A program made the translations under genes and the position numbers. A stretch of 64,000 nucleotides of DNA from Anaerolineae bacterium (GTDB lineage: Bacteria > Chloroflexota > Anaerolineae > CG2-30-64-16), in NCBI GenBank assembly GCA_034432655.1, contig DAOUBP010000162.1, positions 18,827 through 82,826 of the forward strand. The letters are read 5' to 3'. The notes under the pieces were generated by a model. That model worked only from the letters and a program-made list of their open reading frames with translations, had not been told where the DNA came from and did not search any database. Shown in pieces: positions 6,836-43,852 of this stretch. Every line of letters begins with the position of its first letter. Position 1 is the first letter of the stretch.

Positions 6836-7819
6836 TTACACCACCGGCCGCGGGTACAACCCCAGCATCTCGCACACCTGCGGCACGGCCGCCGGCCAGC
6901 TCACGGCCATGATGTGGAGGCCGCGCACGCCTTCGATCTCCCGCACCTGGTTGGCGATCTCGCAGCAGATGTCGAGCCCGGCCTTCTGCTGATCTTCCTT
7001 CGACTTCCCTTCCAGCCGCTTGATCACCCAATCCGGCACGTCCATGCCCGCCACTTCGTTCTTCATGTACTCGGCCGCGCGCAGCGAACGCACCGGCCCC
7101 ACCCCGGCCAGGATGACAACTTTCTCGTGCAGTCCCAGGTCCACCACCCGCTTCATGAACTCCCGGAACCGCTCGACGTTGAAGATCAGTTGCGTCTGGA
7201 TGAACTGCGCGCCCGCCACGATCTTCTTCGCCAGCCGATAGGGGCGGTATTCGTACGGCGGCGCAAACGGGTTTTCCACCGCGCCGATGAAAAAGTCGGG
7301 CGCGATCTTGGGGATCGGCTTGCCGTTCTCGAAAACTTGATTGTCGCGCATCATGCGTGCCATGCGGATCAAGTTGATCGAATCCATGTCGTACACCGGC
7401 TTGGCCTGCGGATGATCCCCCCAGATCGGATGGTCGCCGCTCAAGCATAGGATCGTGTTGATGCCGAAGACATACGCGCCCATCATGTCGCCCTGGATCC
7501 CCAGCCGGTTGCGATCGCGACAGGTGAACTGGACCACCGGCTCCATGCCGGCTTGCTTCAGCATGATGCCCACCGCCAGGCTGGAGACATGCACCATGGC
7601 CGATTGGTTATCGGTGACGTTGTACGCGTCGCCGTAGCCCTTCAGGGTCTTGATCTCGCGCTGGATCGCCTCCAGATTCGGGCCAACCGGTGGCGACACT
7701 TCGACGCACACCGGAAAATGCCCTGCCGCAATGACCTTTGCCAGATTGCTGCTCATCCCTTTCAACCCGGTTTGTACCGGAGCGGGTGCCGCAGGCGGAG
7801 TCAGTATAGGTGCGTTCAT
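6836..7819 (-). CDS. metF: Methylenetetrahydrofolate reductase, large subunit
   Basis: VEVSPP, YNVTDNQ, QFTCRDRNRLGIQGD, LCLSGDH, KKIVAGAQFIQTQ; start set at ATG 7819 overlapping the metV stop. Confidence 0.93.
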   Translation of the reverse strand: MNAPILTPPAAPAPVQTGLKGMSSNLAKVIAAGHFPVCVEVSPPVGPNLEAIQREIKTLKGYGDAYNVTDNQSAMVHVSSLAVGIMLKQAGMEPVVQFTCRDRNRLGIQGDMMGAYVFGINTILCLSGDHPIWGDHPQAKPVYDMDSINLIRMARMMRDNQVFENGKPIPKIAPDFFIGAVENPFAPPYEYRPYRLAKKIVAGAQFIQTQLIFNVERFREFMKRVVDLGLHEKVVILAGVGPVRSLRAAEYMKNEVAGMDVPDWVIKRLEGKSKEDQQKAGLDICCEIANQVREIEGVRGLHIMAVSWPAAVPQVCEMLGLYPRPVV

Positions 7820-8322
7820 TTGCCCTCCTGCGGAAGCACTTCGGTCGCATAGCGGATCGTCTTGTCCGAGCCGGTGGTGATCTGATCGCGGCCCAGAGCA
7901 TAGGTGACCCACGATGCCTGGCCTTTGAGCTGCCAGTCCACCGGCGGGTTCAGGCGCAAGATCTCGGCTGCATAGGGTGTCTTCTGGGCACGCTCGATGG
8001 CCTTGACCCATACGCAATCCATCTCCGGTTTGACCTCGCACTTGCCGTCAAGGCGCACGCCTCCGCACGGACCGTTGCGCAGGTTCTTGGGGCAGTTCAT
8101 CGGGCAGGTCATGCCGGTGTAATGCAACACGCACTGTGCGCAATCCTGGCAATTGAAAAGGGCCTTCTTCACGATTTCCTCCGGCACCTTGACAAGCCGT
8201 GAGGAGCGTTCCATGCCCAACTTCTCGAACAGTGGTTTGATCCGCCGCAAAGTCCACGCGGTCGCCTCCCACGCCCAAACAAGAGGGGTGGGGCGGTCTT
8301 GCCAAAAATCTCGTAACGCCAT
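7816..8322 (-). CDS. metV: MTHFR small Fe-S/Zn subunit MetV
   Basis: CQDCAQCVL...CPMNCPKNLRNGPCGG...CEV...CVW; directly upstream of metF. Confidence 0.88.
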   Translation of the reverse strand: MALRDFWQDRPTPLVWAWEATAWTLRRIKPLFEKLGMERSSRLVKVPEEIVKKALFNCQDCAQCVLHYTGMTCPMNCPKNLRNGPCGGVRLDGKCEVKPEMDCVWVKAIERAQKTPYAAEILRLNPPVDWQLKGQASWVTYALGRDQITTGSDKTIRYATEVLPQEGK

Positions 8323-8353
8323 GGTGGATTTCCTTCCGTTGAAGTGCTGAGTT

Positions 8354-8420
8354 GACGAATGACGAGTGACGAATGACGAACGACGAATGACGAACGACGA
8401 ATGACGAATGACGAAGGACG
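8354..8420. repeat. Tandem heptamer array (GACGAAT/C)n
   Basis: About 9 units GACGAAT/GACGAGT/GACGAAC/GACGAAG. Confidence 0.9.
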
Positions 8421-8442
8421 GTGGTTTACCCGATGGCACTCT

Positions 8443-8880
8443 TCAGGCCAGGTCGGCGCCGAAAGGATCGTGTTCTGGCTCGATCGTATACGTTACTTGC
8501 GCTTCACGCAGCCAGGGTTGCTCGGGAACGAGGGTCTTGCGCATGGTATGCAGTTTGGCGACCAGCAATTCGGCATGCTGATAGGCGGCTCGAAGCGCTG
8601 TTTTGTCTTGGATCAGCTTGCGGCGATTGATGATATGCTGACAGGCTACCGATTCAAGCACTGAACGGATCGCCAAACCCAAGAAGCGTGCCTGTTCGGC
8701 ATCAGTTTGACCGGTAGACCCTTCCGCAATGTTGAGCGCCACTGACGTTGCCGCTCTCGTAACCTGCGACTTGAGGTTGTATTCCTCGCTCTTGGGCAGT
8801 TGCGCAGCAATCTGATCTATCAGATCAATATACTCCAACGCCAACCGCCACACCTCAAGCTGCTCGAACTTGAATGGCAT
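8443..8880 (-). CDS. Four-helix-bundle protein (23S rRNA IVP / bAvd-like family)
   Basis: FEQLEVWRLAL, LPKSEEYNLKSQVTRAATSVALNIAEGS, RFLGLAIRSVLE. Confidence 0.92.
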   Translation of the reverse strand: MPFKFEQLEVWRLALEYIDLIDQIAAQLPKSEEYNLKSQVTRAATSVALNIAEGSTGQTDAEQARFLGLAIRSVLESVACQHIINRRKLIQDKTALRAAYQHAELLVAKLHTMRKTLVPEQPWLREAQVTYTIEPEHDPFGADLA

Positions 8881-8990
8881 CTTCGTCCCTCGCCCTTCGT
8901 CTTTCGTCTTTCGTCTTTCGTCCTTCGTCCTTCGTCTTTCGTCCTTCGTCCTTCGTCCCTCGTCCTTCGTCCCTCGTCCTTCGTCCCTCG
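8881..8990. repeat. Tandem heptamer array (TTCGTCC/T)n, inverted relative to the 8354-8420 array
   Basis: About 15 units CTTCGTC/TTTCGTC/CCTCGTC. Confidence 0.9.
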
Positions 8991-8991
8991 T

Positions 8992-9876
8992 CTACGCAAG
9001 GCCATGCTGCAGCTTGAACGCGCGCACCGTATTCGTCAGCAGCATGGCGATCGTCATCGGCCCCACGCCGCCGGGGACGGGGGTGATGTAACTTGCCACC
9101 TCGACCGCCTCGCTGAACGCGACGTCGCCCACCAGGCGGAACCCGCTCTTCTTGGTGGGATCGTCAATTCGATTGATGCCGACATCTATGACCACTGCGC
9201 CGGGCTTGATCCAGTCCCCGCGCACGTACTCAGGCCGGCCGATGGCTGCTACCACGATGTCTCCCCGCCGCACCTTGTCGGGTAGATCGCGCGTCTTGCT
9301 GTGGCAGACGGTGACCGTGGCGTCGGCGTTTTGCAGCAACGCTGCCACCGGCACACCCACGATGTTGCTGCGGCCCACCACCACCGCATCCTTCCCGGCG
9401 ATCTCGATGCCGGAGCGGACGAGCAGCTCGATGCAGCCGGCCGGCGTGCACGGGATGAACTGCGGCGTGCGTCCCTTCATGACCAGTTGGCCGATGTTCA
9501 TCGGATGGAATCCATCCACGTCCTTGTCCAGGCTGATCAGGTCAAGCACGCGCTGTTCGTTCAACCCTTTGGGCAAAGGCAGCTGCACCAGGATGCCGTT
9601 GACGGTCGGGTCGGCGTTGAGGGCGCGCACCAGGTCCTCCAGCTCCGCCTGGCTGATAGTCGCCGGCAGGCGATGGGTGATCGAACCCATGCCGGCCTCT
9701 TCACACGCCTTACCTTTAGAAGCCACATAGGTCTGCGAGGCCGGGTTGTCGCCCACCAGCACGGCCGCCAGGGTCGGCACCTGGCCGGTCAGCGCCTTGA
9801 GCCGGGCCGCTTCGGCCGCGGCCTCCTGGCGCACGGCTTCGGCGATGGCCTTGCCGTCAATAAGTTTCGCTGTCAT
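8992..9876 (-). CDS. folD: Bifunctional methylene-THF dehydrogenase/cyclohydrolase
   Basis: [59 protein letters not shown]. Confidence 0.98.
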
Positions 9877-9898
9877 GGATTGCTCCTTATGACCAGTT

Positions 9899-9968
9899 GT
9901 TGGGATGTTAGATATTGGATATTAGATGTTGGCGGTCACGCTAATACCTGATACCCAATACATACCCA
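9899..9968. repeat. Head-to-head heptamer array (ATATTRG)n ... (CYAATAC)n
   Basis: ATGTTAG ATATTGG ATATTAG ATGTTGG then CTAATAC CTGATAC CCAATAC. Confidence 0.7.
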
Positions 9969-9972
9969 TTTC

Positions 9973-10884
9973 CTAACACTCTTCACACTTTAGCAGGTAC
10001 TCATACGCGTTCAGCGCGGCTTTGGCGCCCTCACCGATGGCGATGACCACCTGCTCGGCCGGCAGATGCGTCACATCGCCGGCCGCGAACAGGCCAGGGA
10101 CGGTGGTCTCGCCGCCGCAGTTCACCACCACGCGGCCCTGTTCGTCCAGGTCGGCCAGCCCTCGTACCAGCTCGCTGTGAGGCCGCAAGCCCAACTCGAC
10201 GAAGATCACGTCCACATCCAGGACGCGTTGGGTCCCATCCGGCGCGCGCACCACCAGCTGCCGCGCGAAGGTGTCCCCTTCCACAGCTACCGGTTCCCAA
10301 TTTTCCAACAACTCCACATGCACCGCCGTCCGGACACGCCGGCCTAACGGTGTATCCAGATCACCGTGCGTCGGAGCTACCAGGTAAAGCCGGTCCACGA
10401 TCTGCATCAGTTCGCCCGCCCCGCGCAGGGCCATGGGGCCAGAACCTACCAGCGCCACCCGCTTGTCAATGTACAGCGGCGCGTAACTGACGGTGGAATA
10501 CGCCACCCCGCGCAGGAAATACCGATCGGCGCCGGGCACATTAAGACGAACGGCATCGGCGCCTGTGGCCAGGATGACGGTACGGCTCTCCAGCTGTTTG
10601 CCACTGGCAGTGGTGACCACAAAACCTTTGGCGGTCTTCTCTAGCCTGGTCACCTTCTCCAACATGCGGGTGAAATCCAGATACTCGATCTCGTTGCGAA
10701 AACGGCGCACCAGGTCGGCTCCGTTGACCACATTGTGCGTGTCCACTCCCTCGACGAGTAGGTGGGCATTGGCCTTGCCGCCCAGGTCAGGGCTGATCAG
10801 CATGCAATTCAGCCGTTTGCGGATGGCATACACGGCTGCAGTCAACCCTGCCGGTCCACCGCCGATGATGATAAGGTCGTACAT
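9973..10884 (-). CDS. Thioredoxin-reductase-like flavoprotein lacking the internal CxxC, with C-terminal CEEC
   Basis: IIGGGPAG and GLFAAGD FAD motifs; RGVAYSTVSY where TrxB has RGVSYCATCD; ends ...LLKCEEC. Confidence 0.85.
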   Translation of the reverse strand: MYDLIIIGGGPAGLTAAVYAIRKRLNCMLISPDLGGKANAHLLVEGVDTHNVVNGADLVRRFRNEIEYLDFTRMLEKVTRLEKTAKGFVVTTASGKQLESRTVILATGADAVRLNVPGADRYFLRGVAYSTVSYAPLYIDKRVALVGSGPMALRGAGELMQIVDRLYLVAPTHGDLDTPLGRRVRTAVHVELLENWEPVAVEGDTFARQLVVRAPDGTQRVLDVDVIFVELGLRPHSELVRGLADLDEQGRVVVNCGGETTVPGLFAAGDVTHLPAEQVVIAIGEGAKAALNAYEYLLKCEEC

Positions 10885-22503: not shown

Positions 22504-23475
22504 TTATCCCGCCATGAGCTCGGCGATCATCTTTTTCACCCGAGCCACAGCCTGCGGGTGGCGCATCACCACGATGTCAGCGCCGGACTGGATCAGGGCC
22601 GCGGCGGTCAGGGCCTCCCAGTTGATCGCGCGTTCAACCCAATCGCCCCAAGCAGCCGGAACGCCATCGCCTGCGCGGGCTTCCTTAGTGCGCCACGCCT
22701 CTTCACCGGGGGTGACGATCATCGGTTGCTGGGTCATGCCGTCGCCCTGCAAAGCTGCCAGCCGCAGACGTTCCATGACGCTGTAGCCGTACTCGATACC
22801 GTAGCCCAACGCGCCGGTGGTCGGGTCGGTGATGATGCGATCCAGGGGCATCCCCATATCGTGGATCAAAATCGTGAGCTGTTTGGACAGGTTGACATCC
22901 ATGGGCGTCTTGGCCGTGACCAGATGGCCGTTGGCCAGTGCGGCCGCCACAATGGTGCGGTAGTTCTTGTCCTCGCACGCGCCGAGGGCCAGCCGTTCGC
23001 CAGCGCCCTCTTCTGCACAGGCCACCAGGATTTCGTTGTCCAACTCAGCCTGGCCGGGGCCCAGTACGATCAAGGGCAGGCCGGTTGCGCCCAAGACGGC
23101 GCGCAAAACCTGACGCGCTACAGCGCCGGTCATCCGATTGCCGGCCGCGTCCACCGTTGCAAAACGCAACGCGATCAGGTCGGCGCCGGCGTCCTCGGCT
23201 GCGCGGGCCCAGGCCGCCGGATCATCCAACACGGCGCCCCAGGCCGATGTCAAGGGAGCCGGCCACTCCTCGTTTGGGTTGCGATTCCACACCTCAACCG
23301 CCACCCGCGGCGGATTGCCGGTCGAACCCTCGAACGATAAAAACGGCAGGGTGGTATGCCCCCCCACTTGCACGACCGCGCGCCGTGTGCCGCCGTCGGC
23401 CGCGGTCGCGCCTAAAGTGACCAGGCGGATACTGCCTGCCCACTTCTCGACAGGAACTTCAACAGTTACAGGCAT
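22504..23475 (-). CDS. acsD: Corrinoid Fe-S protein small (delta) subunit
   Basis: VGGHTTLPF, CEDKNY, TPMDVNLSKQL, DPTTGALGYGIEYGYSVMERLR, SGADIVVMRHP. Confidence 0.95.
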   Translation of the reverse strand: MPVTVEVPVEKWAGSIRLVTLGATAADGGTRRAVVQVGGHTTLPFLSFEGSTGNPPRVAVEVWNRNPNEEWPAPLTSAWGAVLDDPAAWARAAEDAGADLIALRFATVDAAGNRMTGAVARQVLRAVLGATGLPLIVLGPGQAELDNEILVACAEEGAGERLALGACEDKNYRTIVAAALANGHLVTAKTPMDVNLSKQLTILIHDMGMPLDRIITDPTTGALGYGIEYGYSVMERLRLAALQGDGMTQQPMIVTPGEEAWRTKEARAGDGVPAAWGDWVERAINWEALTAAALIQSGADIVVMRHPQAVARVKKMIAELMAG

Positions 23476-23496
23476 GACGGTGAACCTCCTTTGCGT

Positions 23497-23640
23497 TGCG
23501 TATTACGTACTGCGTACTGCGTATTGCGTGCTGCGTATTTCGTATTGGAAACTACGCCTTTATTGTCTGCTGGATTTCCCTGCTCCTGCTTTCTAGCTCC
23601 CCACTTTCCCAGCTTGTTTTCTGGTTTGCCTCGCTTCCTT
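23497..23640. repeat. Heptamer array (TGCGTAY)n followed by a degenerate pyrimidine-rich 7-periodic tract
   Basis: TGCGTAT TACGTAC TGCGTAC TGCGTAT TGCGTGC TGCGTAT TTCGTAT (23497-23547), then a CT-rich tract 23575-23640. Confidence 0.75.
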
Positions 23641-25061: not shown

Positions 25062-25144
25062 GACAAACGACGAAAGACGAAAGACGAAAGACGAAAGACG
25101 AAAGACCAAACCGTCCTTCGTCCTTCGTCGTTCGTCCTTTGTCA
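25062..25144. repeat. Head-to-head heptamer arrays (GACGAAA)n-(TTCGTCC)n with no enclosed gene
   Basis: GACGAAA x5 plus variants, then TTCGTCC TTCGTCG TTCGTCC TTTGTCA. Confidence 0.9.
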
Positions 25145-27464: not shown

Positions 27465-27535
27465 TACTGCGTATTGCGTGCTGCGTACTCTCCTGAAACC
27501 TGACGACGATCGCGCAACACGCAATACGCAGTACG
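27465..27535. repeat. Head-to-head heptamer array (TGCGTAY)n ... (RTACGCA)n
   Basis: TACTGCG TATTGCG TGCTGCG then CGCGCAA CACGCAA TACGCAG. Confidence 0.75.
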
Positions 27536-37065: not shown

Positions 37066-37128
37066 TACGCAATACGCAGTACGCAATACGCAGTACGCAG
37101 TACGCAATACGCAGTACGCAGTACGCAA
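37066..37128. repeat. Tandem heptamer array (TACGCAR)9
   Basis: Nine units TACGCAA/TACGCAG. Confidence 0.92.
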
Positions 37129-37142
37129 TCCCGGAGCCATCC

Positions 37143-39284
<2,142 letters not shown>

Positions 39285-43773: not shown

Positions 43774-43852
43774 GGAATTGGGAATGGCGAATGGCCGTCA
43801 TTCGTTGATTCAAGATTCGCCAATTCGCTGATTCGAGATTCGCCGCTTCGCC
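43774..43852. repeat. Head-to-head degenerate heptamer array (GAATGG..)/(..ATTCG)
   Basis: GGAATTG GGAATGG CGAATGG followed by repeated ATTCG-containing ~7-nt units. Confidence 0.6.

Follow-up and report, generated by a model that had tools for sequence, protein, structure and literature searches.

A four-helix-bundle gene enclosed by inverted heptamer arrays between folD and metV in an Anaerolineae bacterium: a probable intervening-sequence-type cassette in an mRNA operon

Here, we present an analysis of a gene encoding a four-helix-bundle (4HB) protein and of the two arrays of tandem heptamers that enclose it in a 64,000-nt stretch of the Anaerolineae bacterium contig DAOUBP010000162.1 (the window). 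The whole region lies on the minus strand, with the sense order folD, an arm of 16 heptamers, the 4HB gene, an arm of 9.7 heptamers, a metV-like gene, and a metF-like gene (Table 1). Tandem Repeats Finder (TRF) calls both arrays with a period of 7, i.e., TGACGAA (9.7 copies; score, 108) at 8353-8420 and CTTCGTC (16.0 copies; score, 161) at 8881-8992, in good agreement with the approximately 9 and 15 units counted in an earlier note on this DNA. The mutual complementarity of six in seven bases per unit described in that note is also borne out: the arms form inverted repeats of 67 nt at 87% or 73 nt at 81% complementarity that are separated by ∼500 nt, and the 3′ arm is complementary to the 5′ arm at 6/7 positions per unit. 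The pattern GACGAANGACGAANGACGAA (three times GACGAAN with at most two mismatches) has 30 matches in the window compared with 0.00 expected from 100 dinucleotide shuffles, and these matches are confined to the two arms and one additional site at 25062-25143. The folD stop codon (TAG, 8992-8994) overlaps the first heptamer of the 5′ arm, which extends from the last base of this codon directly to the ATG of the 4HB gene and contains the Shine-Dalgarno-like motifs AAGGA/GAGGGA. The native spacer in front of metV is homologous to the short spacer of an allele that has only two heptamers (L085; ...ACGAAGGAAATCAGCC ATG). At the borders, direct repetition is limited to a microhomology of the AAGGA type that is shared by the 5′ arm and the metV ribosome-binding site; it fits deletion and insertion equally well. 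No transposase was detected, the sole Pfam/NCBIfam matches being PF05635 and TIGR02436. Because the same architecture recurs in independent metagenome-assembled genomes (MAGs), metagenome contigs, and a complete Xanthomonas chromosome, we reject an assembly artifact. The surroundings at 6800-29600 contain a Wood-Ljungdahl gene set, i.e., the metF-like and metV-like genes, folD, a CdhD-like gene, and the genes for the acetyl-CoA synthase (ACS) beta subunit and carbon monoxide dehydrogenase (CODH); in a relative (L145), a gene for a formate-tetrahydrofolate (THF) ligase adjoins metF.

Table 1. Features of the window and alleles of the folD-metV junction (loci outside the window have L numbers)
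Feature	Position in the window, or loci	Strand	Description and basis
metF-like gene	6836 to ∼7800	-	Methylene-THF reductase gene, follows the metV-like gene; orthologous loci with gene calls
metV-like gene	7816-8322	-	Small subunit, downstream host gene; PF12225/DUF5981
Native spacer before metV	8323-8352	-	Contains the ribosome-binding site GGAAGGAA; sequence
3′ arm (sense)	8353-8420	-	9.7 heptamers TTCGTCA/TTCGTCG; TRF, inverted repeats, RNA fold
Unique spacer	8421-8442	-	22 nt, from the 4HB stop codon to the 3′ arm; sequence
4HB gene	8443-8880	-	145 aa, stop codon at 8443-8445; PF05635/TIGR02436
5′ arm (sense)	8881-8992	-	16 heptamers GACGAAG/GACGAGG/GACGAAA; TRF, sequence, pattern scan
folD	8992-9876	-	Bifunctional methylene-THF dehydrogenase/cyclohydrolase, upstream host gene; PF02882, PF00763, NF010785
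Gene-less hairpin	25062-25143		GACGAAA x6, 2-nt gap, CGTCCTT x4.6; repeat calls, pattern scan, RNA fold
Occupied allele	Window, L001, L081, L087, L125, L144, L145, L146		4HB gene with GACGAAG-type arms
Truly empty allele	L098, L099, L101, L122, L124		Spacer of 9-23 nt without repeats
Two-heptamer allele	L085, L102 (L103 identical)		GACGAAG x2 only, 26-42 nt
Gene-less hairpin allele, other units	L082, L084, L088, L095, L104-L106		TTGCGTA/ACACGCA, TAGGTAT/ATACCTA, TAGGGAT/ATCCCTA, GACGAGT/ACTCGTT, TTGCGTA/ACACGAA
Plain GC hairpin allele	L090-L092		Without heptamers

The earlier note had proposed that the transcript could fold into a stem of about 60 bp with the entire open reading frame (ORF) in the loop. 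Consistently, in the minimum-energy structure predicted for the minus-strand RNA 8335-9005, the arrays pair with each other and the whole ORF is in the loop; the stem comprises ∼10 helices of 6 bp with single mismatches between them, and the fold has an energy of -268.4 kcal/mol with a z-score of -6.15, none of 20 shuffles being as stable. A scan of the folD-metV region for promoters and terminators identified no such site within the arms or spacers, and the sole promoter-like match (8657-8630 on the minus strand; 9/12) is inside the 4HB ORF and of a quality that shuffled sequences give at the same rate. Rfam, with the rRNA families included, had zero matches across 7500-10000. Energies calculated with RNAduplex for the 150-nt flanks of 4HB genes were dropped, as the GC-rich flanks of control genes were equally very negative; because these energies do not discriminate, we used ungapped complementarity and the matching of units for the comparisons below.

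The 4HB protein matches PF05635 (23S_rRNA_IVP; E = 1.3e-22, 80.4 bits at a cutoff of 33.8) and TIGR02436 (four helix bundle protein; E = 2.2e-23, 82.6 bits at a cutoff of 24). Its 4HB domain comprises residues 1-117 and is followed by a tail of 28 residues that is predicted to be disordered; in the AlphaFold2 model (pLDDT, 85.9), the helices span residues 3-27, 30-55, 60-86, and 94-117. The nearest relative in the PDB is 2GSC (Xcc0516; sequence E = 2.2e-10, Foldseek TM score of 0.88-0.91), the entry for which has five chains and which has been described as a homopentamer (Lin et al. 2006, as quoted in PMC4990558). The published family motif R-x3-S-x3-N-x2-E is present as R42, S46, N50, and E53; together with E32, Q39, S73, and E76, these residues show little or no variation among phyla, pointing to a conserved site of a specific kind. 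The family is large, with 5,079 cluster representatives at 50% identity (E ≤ 1e-3). A role in defense or in phages is unsupported because searches of PADLOC and PHROGs gave zero matches for the protein, as did tblastn searches against plasmids and against phages.

The earlier note had also stated a structural relation to Avd, the accessory protein of diversity-generating retroelements (DGRs). This relation was recovered by Foldseek, behind 2GSC and 2RLD, for Avd chains of 8UB7 and 4DWL (TM scores of 0.78-0.86, E of 0.07-0.36), with a sequence identity of 7-9%. Homology of the 4HB family with Avd has been stated in a review, and Avd-like proteins match PF05635. Thus, fold and family would allow the 4HB gene to be the Avd gene of a DGR; this explanation is next to impossible in our view, and we reject it for this locus based on the metabolic neighbors and the closer non-DGR structures. 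Specifically, there is no reverse transcriptase and there are no template or variable repeats nearby; in the window and in three Pfam-annotated orthologous loci, the neighbors include only metabolic genes (folD, metV, metF, and genes for a pyridine-nucleotide oxidoreductase and malic enzyme); phage matches are absent; and the non-DGR proteins 2GSC and 2RLD are far closer structurally. Avd is basic, whereas the 4HB family members analyzed here are acidic to neutral with a median pI of 6.05. The likeness extends beyond the four-helix-bundle fold, in that Avd and 2GSC both form pentameric rings and Avd is found in an RNA-protein complex (8UB7).

To place the cassette, we took 80 genomic loci encoding relatives of the 4HB protein, of which 76 were usable for counting repeats in the flanks. 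Most of these loci are from Chloroflexota, with 55-85% identity, while the rest (33-50% identity) are from Bacteroidota, Melainabacteria, Elusimicrobia/Endomicrobia, Nitrospirota, and further groups. The earlier note had asked whether other family members have such flanks, and they do: based on TRF, arrays of 7- or 8-nt units flank the 4HB gene on both sides at 39 loci, on one side at 29, and on neither at only 8, i.e., 68/76 loci have an array on at least one side, and the gene for Xcc0516 also has them. Direct reading of the flanks revealed additional degenerate arrays that TRF overlooks. In the Chloroflexota group, the arrays have a period of 7, and in the Melainabacteria/Elusimicrobia group mostly one of 8; the median arm is ∼29-30 nt (∼4 units), and the modal array has ∼4-5 units. 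While the unit varies by locus (GACGAAG, GACGGAG, GACGACT, GACGATG, GACCAAG, GAGATTG, GCAGCTAA, GATGCAAA), the upstream unit is the reverse complement of the downstream unit, to within 1 nt, in 33/39 pairs, compared with 6.9 on average and 15 at most among 1000 shuffled pairings. The ungapped complementarity of the 200-nt flanks exceeded the 99th percentile of control genes from the same loci in 45/76 cases. When inverted array pairs with a spacing of 300-700 nt were searched for blindly outside the known genes, two were found; one (L026:5301-5858; GAGATTG/CCAATCT) encloses a divergent PF05635 gene that the similarity search had overlooked, and the other is within a long coding region. Altogether, these 4HB cassettes constitute a cross-phylum class of genes enclosed by inverted 7- or 8-nt arrays with complementary arms.

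If the genomes in question are simply rich in slippage-prone intergenic heptamers, 4HB genes could lie among them by chance and there would be no functional link. We consider this very unlikely. In support of it, the window also has heptamer arrays that stand alone in 5′ leaders and some that are even within coding regions, a period of 7 is more frequent than any other among the tandem repeats of all sequence analyzed, and slippage of polymerase has been held responsible for the excess of heptamers in bacteria (PMC4692102). However, the density of period-7/8 arrays is 1.59/kb within 260 nt of a 4HB gene compared with 0.19/kb elsewhere (8.5-fold), and the arms match each other far beyond shuffled pairs. 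The arms also keep a constant polarity, the upstream unit being the purine-rich one in 37/39 pairs, and the pattern is found in Chloroflexota, Bacteroidota, Melainabacteria, Elusimicrobia, Nitrospirota, Xanthomonas, and Coxiella's intervening sequence (IVS), while the period shifts from 7 to 8 between groups.

Where several 4HB genes are present in one locus, each has its own unit. Three such genes lie within 3-4 kb at L026:2133-5858 (a Caldilineales MAG; flanking heptamers GGACGAT, AGGACGA, and GAGATTG, one per gene) and at L051:52-2940 (a Balneolaceae MAG). At five loci (L004, L005, L007, L029, and L051), a second purine-rich array directly follows the 4HB stop codon and precedes the pyrimidine-rich array; the 3′ arm can therefore pair locally or with the distant 5′ arm, allowing alternative structures.

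The sampled cassettes are placed as if they were members of the operons in which they are found. Both neighbors were co-oriented with the 4HB gene in 63/70 loci, compared with 32/58 for control genes assessed in the same way (p = 1e-5). Inspection of the flanking sequences shows that the upstream gene often terminates within the first unit or immediately ahead of it (TGACG..., TAGACG...), and that the downstream gene starts close behind the 3′ arm. Published examples of 23S_rRNA_IVP genes inside cas operons, e.g., between cmr3 and cmr2, fit the same habit. At L028, L030, and L033, the region 5′ of the 4HB gene has a purine-rich array, a terminator-like hairpin with a T-run, a TATAAT-like box, and a pyrimidine-rich array, suggesting that these copies may own a promoter.

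The closest studied counterpart is the IVS of the Coxiella 23S rRNA. This IVS contains an ORF of the PF05635 family, and 2-3 tandem GACAGAT heptamers lie just before the start of this ORF (S23p) inside a 28-bp terminal stem, in which RNase III cleaves where the first repeat begins; the number of GACAGAT copies differs between strains, and the ORF was reported to be decaying and probably untranslated (PMC4990558). Thus, the IVS-like architecture proposed in the earlier note has a direct parallel. As in the 23S IVSs of Coxiella burnetii, Leptospira, and Brucella (PMC4990558), the loop encodes a PF05635 protein and terminal inverted repeats form a stem of at least ∼28 bp; as in Coxiella, the 5′ arm consists of tandem heptamers that begin with GAC and vary in copy number, the arm includes a purine-rich ribosome-binding region, and there is reliance on host transcription. 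In contrast to these IVSs, the cassette described here lies between protein-coding genes of an operon rather than in an rRNA helix and, because it is outside any rRNA gene, is not a 23S IVS proper; its arrays (16 and 9.7 units) are far longer, its ORF is under strong purifying selection while the Coxiella ORF is reported to be decaying, and RNase III cleavage has been demonstrated in Coxiella, while here it is drawn from that parallel. We conclude that the cassette is probably an IVS-type element of mRNA operons with a likely link to the heptamer repeats of bacteria.

The fuller reading that we favor, and that in our judgment stands at about even chances, is that an old IVS-type cassette in the Wood-Ljungdahl folD-metV spacer is co-transcribed with the host genes, that its arms act as a double-stranded RNA stem, and that this stem is processed by RNase III. 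In this model, the cassette would be transcribed by read-through from the host operon, and the arms would pair into a long, imperfect double-stranded stem from the upstream stop codon to just before the downstream ribosome-binding site. The RNase III of the host would cut this stem, as in the Coxiella IVS, and thereby release the 4HB message while leaving the folD and metVF messages intact, so that the host transcript would not be disrupted. Because the purine-rich arm carries the ribosome-binding site of the 4HB gene, pairing of the arms would also sequester this site. As a guess, the 4HB protein might act on, or bind, the repeats.

Several points weigh against this reading. RNase III cleavage rests on analogy. 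The 80 loci were chosen by similarity to the protein encoded in the window and, hence, are a biased sample of the family. The seventh position of each unit in the stem of the window is mostly a purine-purine mismatch. With a cruder, greedy gene caller, which picked up only 32 of the 4HB genes, co-orientation was 22/32 compared with 123/229 and not significant. Moreover, among stem mismatches, G:T (207) and A:C (176) did not differ significantly (p = 0.35); because there is no such asymmetry, selection on the sense RNA is not separable from symmetry at the level of the DNA. Anecdotally, pairing is better as sense RNA for the gene-less hairpin at 25.1 kb and for a handful of octamer loci of low GC content. 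Finally, a purely selfish, insulated insertion does not account for how strongly purifying selection acts on the protein.

To follow the junction itself, a metagenome scan was anchored on the metV-like protein, independently of the 4HB gene, and folD, 4HB, metV, and metF were located in 63 loci. The earlier note had suggested looking for empty alleles, and the junction was indeed found truly empty as well as occupied, holding two heptamers only, or holding hairpins that lack the gene (Table 1). The closest relative by FolD identity (L082; 90%) is among those with a gene-less hairpin of another unit, although no single-hairpin fold was obtained for its spacer (z = -2.8); the hairpins folded from L084, L088, and L095 and the two in the window have z-scores from -5 to -7.7. 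In a neighbor-joining tree of MetV, which is a short protein and gives only a rough guide, the occupied alleles are interspersed with empty and hairpin alleles, and L085 is nested among occupied ones. The L085 spacer corresponds to an occupied allele minus the stretch from the AAGGA of the 5′ arm to the AAGGA of the metV ribosome-binding site and would most simply be a deletion scar; two-heptamer spacers in general may be such scars.

Among five full-length orthologous alleles (ten pairs), the 4HB gene has ratios of nonsynonymous to synonymous substitutions (dN/dS) of 0.04-0.14, arguing that the 4HB protein is functional, and dS is 0.99-2.9 in 9/10 pairs, the closest pair having 0.23, which means that synonymous sites are largely saturated. 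Judging from these sequences, the insertion is old and vertically inherited within the folD-metV clade. The GACGAAG/xTTCGTC unit is retained in all seven occupied alleles despite their divergence, while the copy number ranges from ∼4 to 16 upstream and from ∼4 to 10 downstream, with the window at the long end. Slippage would explain the changes in array length, and selection on the stem, concerted evolution, or sequence-specific recognition would explain the conserved unit. For the mobile cassette suggested in the earlier note, an ancient insertion and later loss are documented, whereas recent movement is not, the occupied alleles being orthologous and old; mobility in general is therefore at most weakly indicated.

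The repeats that form the arms also occur without the gene. The hairpin at 25062-25143 lies between a CBS-domain gene and the gene for the ACS beta subunit and looks like the stem of the cassette minus the gene. Its predicted RNA fold has an energy of -50.4 kcal/mol (z = -7.6), and the minus-strand (sense) RNA would form 19 consecutive pairs by means of G:U wobbles where the other strand would have A:C mismatches. A second gene-less heptamer hairpin (27465-27535; TACTGCG/CGCAATA arms, ∼24-nt loop, z = -5.0) lies between the genes for the ACS beta subunit and CODH (Prismane family); heptamer hairpins thus occupy spacers of Wood-Ljungdahl operons in the window.

Dispersed heptamers have been described in several bacteria, i.e., GGGAATC in Xanthomonas and GGGGA(C/T)T in Nostoc (Rehm et al. 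2015, PMC4692102), heptanucleotide repeats in Calothrix (as cited in PMC4692102), TAACTGA in Beggiatoaceae (PMC4679880), and GGGACCG x4 elements in Geobacter metallireducens (PMC2700814). Like the repeats analyzed here, they form intergenic arrays of about four or more units, often as convergent pairs able to form stem-loops and often within operons, and their length and sequence vary among close relatives. In the window, the intergenic arrays have at least three heptamers and are frequently convergent, and the gene-less hairpins of the window and of the folD-metV spacers of relatives are of this kind. Different from those reports, in which the repeats are treated as G-quadruplex-forming or regulatory without a link to 4HB genes, the arrays here enclose a gene. 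In the full-text literature that we searched, which excludes subscription journals, no paper connected non-rRNA 4HB genes with inverted heptamer or octamer arrays.

Xanthomonas connects such repeats with the 4HB family. Orthologues of the Xcc0516 gene lie between accB and accC, co-oriented with both, and have GGGAATC GGGAGTG GAGAATC GGGAATC upstream and CATTCCC CATTCTC GACTCCC TATTCCC (NATTCCC x4) downstream. The predicted RNA stem has four 6-bp helices and spans the interval between the stop codon of accB and the start codon of accC (z = -7.1). GGGAATC is present at ∼186 sites in X. campestris, of which 70 are in convergent pairs (Rehm et al. 2015, PMC4692102); in the supplementary table of that paper, the array beside XCC0516 is marked as lacking an inverted partner, and the protein family is not mentioned in the paper.

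These gene-less copies bear on a different explanation, i.e., a DNA-level system reminiscent of REPINs and RAYTs, in which the 4HB protein would be a trans-acting factor that creates, spreads, or maintains heptamer hairpins and the RNA stem would be a by-product. RAYT genes are reportedly flanked by repetitive extragenic palindromic (REP) sequences. RAYTs are HUH/Y1 transposases with a known chemistry, and REPs are single palindromic units. The likeness is that a gene is bracketed by inverted short repeats that are also dispersed as gene-less intergenic hairpins, a feature that is clear in Xanthomonas and is represented by one hairpin of the same unit in the 64-kb window. Gene-less hairpins of the same unit are also present in the genomes of L001, L005, and L007, and the flank unit was shared with other arrays of the same locus in 14/48 pairs compared with 4.8 ± 1.9 expected, although these pairs are not independent and few loci dominate, with L005 contributing 6 of the 14. 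Moreover, because the folD-metV spacers of close relatives have hairpins of unrelated units, such hairpins would arise or arrive quickly. On the other hand, the 4HB protein has no recognizable nuclease, recombinase, or polymerase motif, no match to HUH/Y1 transposases, and no match to a defense or phage family, and it is not basic (median pI as above); the repeats are tandem arrays rather than single palindromes; in many genomes, there are several 4HB paralogues that each have a unit of their own; and the occupied alleles are ancient, with no sign of recent copies. We regard this explanation as unlikely.

Alternatively, the arrays could be putative binding sites for the 4HB protein, with one unit, as RNA or DNA, per subunit of a pentameric ring; the protein would then control translation of its own message as well as the stability or expression of neighboring cistrons, and RNase III would not be needed. 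The unit itself, beyond the complementarity of the arms, is conserved across orthologous alleles in which synonymous sites are saturated, and the modal array of ∼4-5 units is close to the subunit number of the homopentameric homologue 2GSC. Likewise, the near-invariant polar residues suggest a specific binding surface, and the relative Avd works in an RNA-protein complex (8UB7). However, the 4HB protein is not basic, concerted evolution and selection on the stem could keep the unit without any protein, and the units faced by identical conserved residues differ greatly between copies, a point against the conserved surface recognizing a specific sequence. We consider this model quite improbable; neither it nor the DNA-level system is at odds with the favored reading.

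In a wider reading, which we hold to be doubtful, PF05635 proteins would be the dedicated partners of bacterial 7- or 8-nt arrays: each gene would reside inside the hairpin that it serves, the protein would help to create, copy, or stabilize hairpins, and the 23S IVS would be the special case of having landed in an rRNA gene. As part of such a partnership, the protein might, like its relative Avd, cooperate with a polymerase by which short templated units are added to the two 3′ ends at a break; such an addition would yield the observed inverted symmetry with the G- or purine-rich unit first. The suggestion in the earlier note that the element targets or generates heptamer arrays is encouraged by the gene-less hairpins of the same unit in the same genomes.

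Taken together, three unexplained observations would unite, i.e., the stem-enclosed conserved ORFs of 23S IVSs, the numerous PF05635 genes, and the heptamer repeats that are overrepresented in bacteria (Xanthomonas, Nostoc, Geobacter, and Beggiatoaceae). The design of the rRNA IVS is present in ordinary operons across phyla as well, with arms built of the same kind of repeat as the dispersed heptamers and, in Xanthomonas, of the very same repeat. Because the gene for the structurally solved Xcc0516 lies between accB and accC of Xanthomonas campestris, the function of the 4HB family is directly testable in a cultured organism. Moreover, 4HB cassettes could be mistaken for operon members, as with the 23S_rRNA_IVP genes that were reported as CRISPR-associated.

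Close homologues of the 4HB gene are mostly on contigs of only ∼0.5-4 kb. Because many of these contigs are ∼1 kb, the flanking arrays probably break short-read metagenome assemblies, and the family and its flanks may be underrepresented in MAGs. At L067:3880-3940, a 4HB cassette with GAAGATTA octamers directly follows a putative tRNA 3′ end (...GGTTCAATTCCACCCGTTGCCA) and a T-run; at a distance of 3.9 kb, there is another copy that shares the upstream unit.

The window has further arrays of short units. Two solo arrays without a nearby inverted partner lie immediately 5′ of start codons, and their units read TACGCAR in the sense of the downstream gene: TACGCAA-type units (7.4 copies; 23496-23547) precede the CdhD-like gene at 22504-23475 on the minus strand, and TACGCAG/TACGCAA units (8.9 copies; 37066-37127) precede a gene for a DUF255 thioredoxin-like protein at 37143-39284 on the plus strand. 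Within the coding region of the latter, tandem arrays of the 8-mer AGCGAATC and the 7-mer CGCATCA (38524-38599) encode a short low-complexity insert; similarly, GACGAAG and TCGTCCT arrays are found within an ORF of 1051 aa at L044:5191-5604. Finally, a 23-nt/8-nt tandem repeat of the GATTCGCC type occupies the spacer between the genes for a cobalamin adenosyltransferase and a DUF2231 membrane protein (43800-43852); its unit, when reverse-complemented, gives the 8-mer at 38524-38572.

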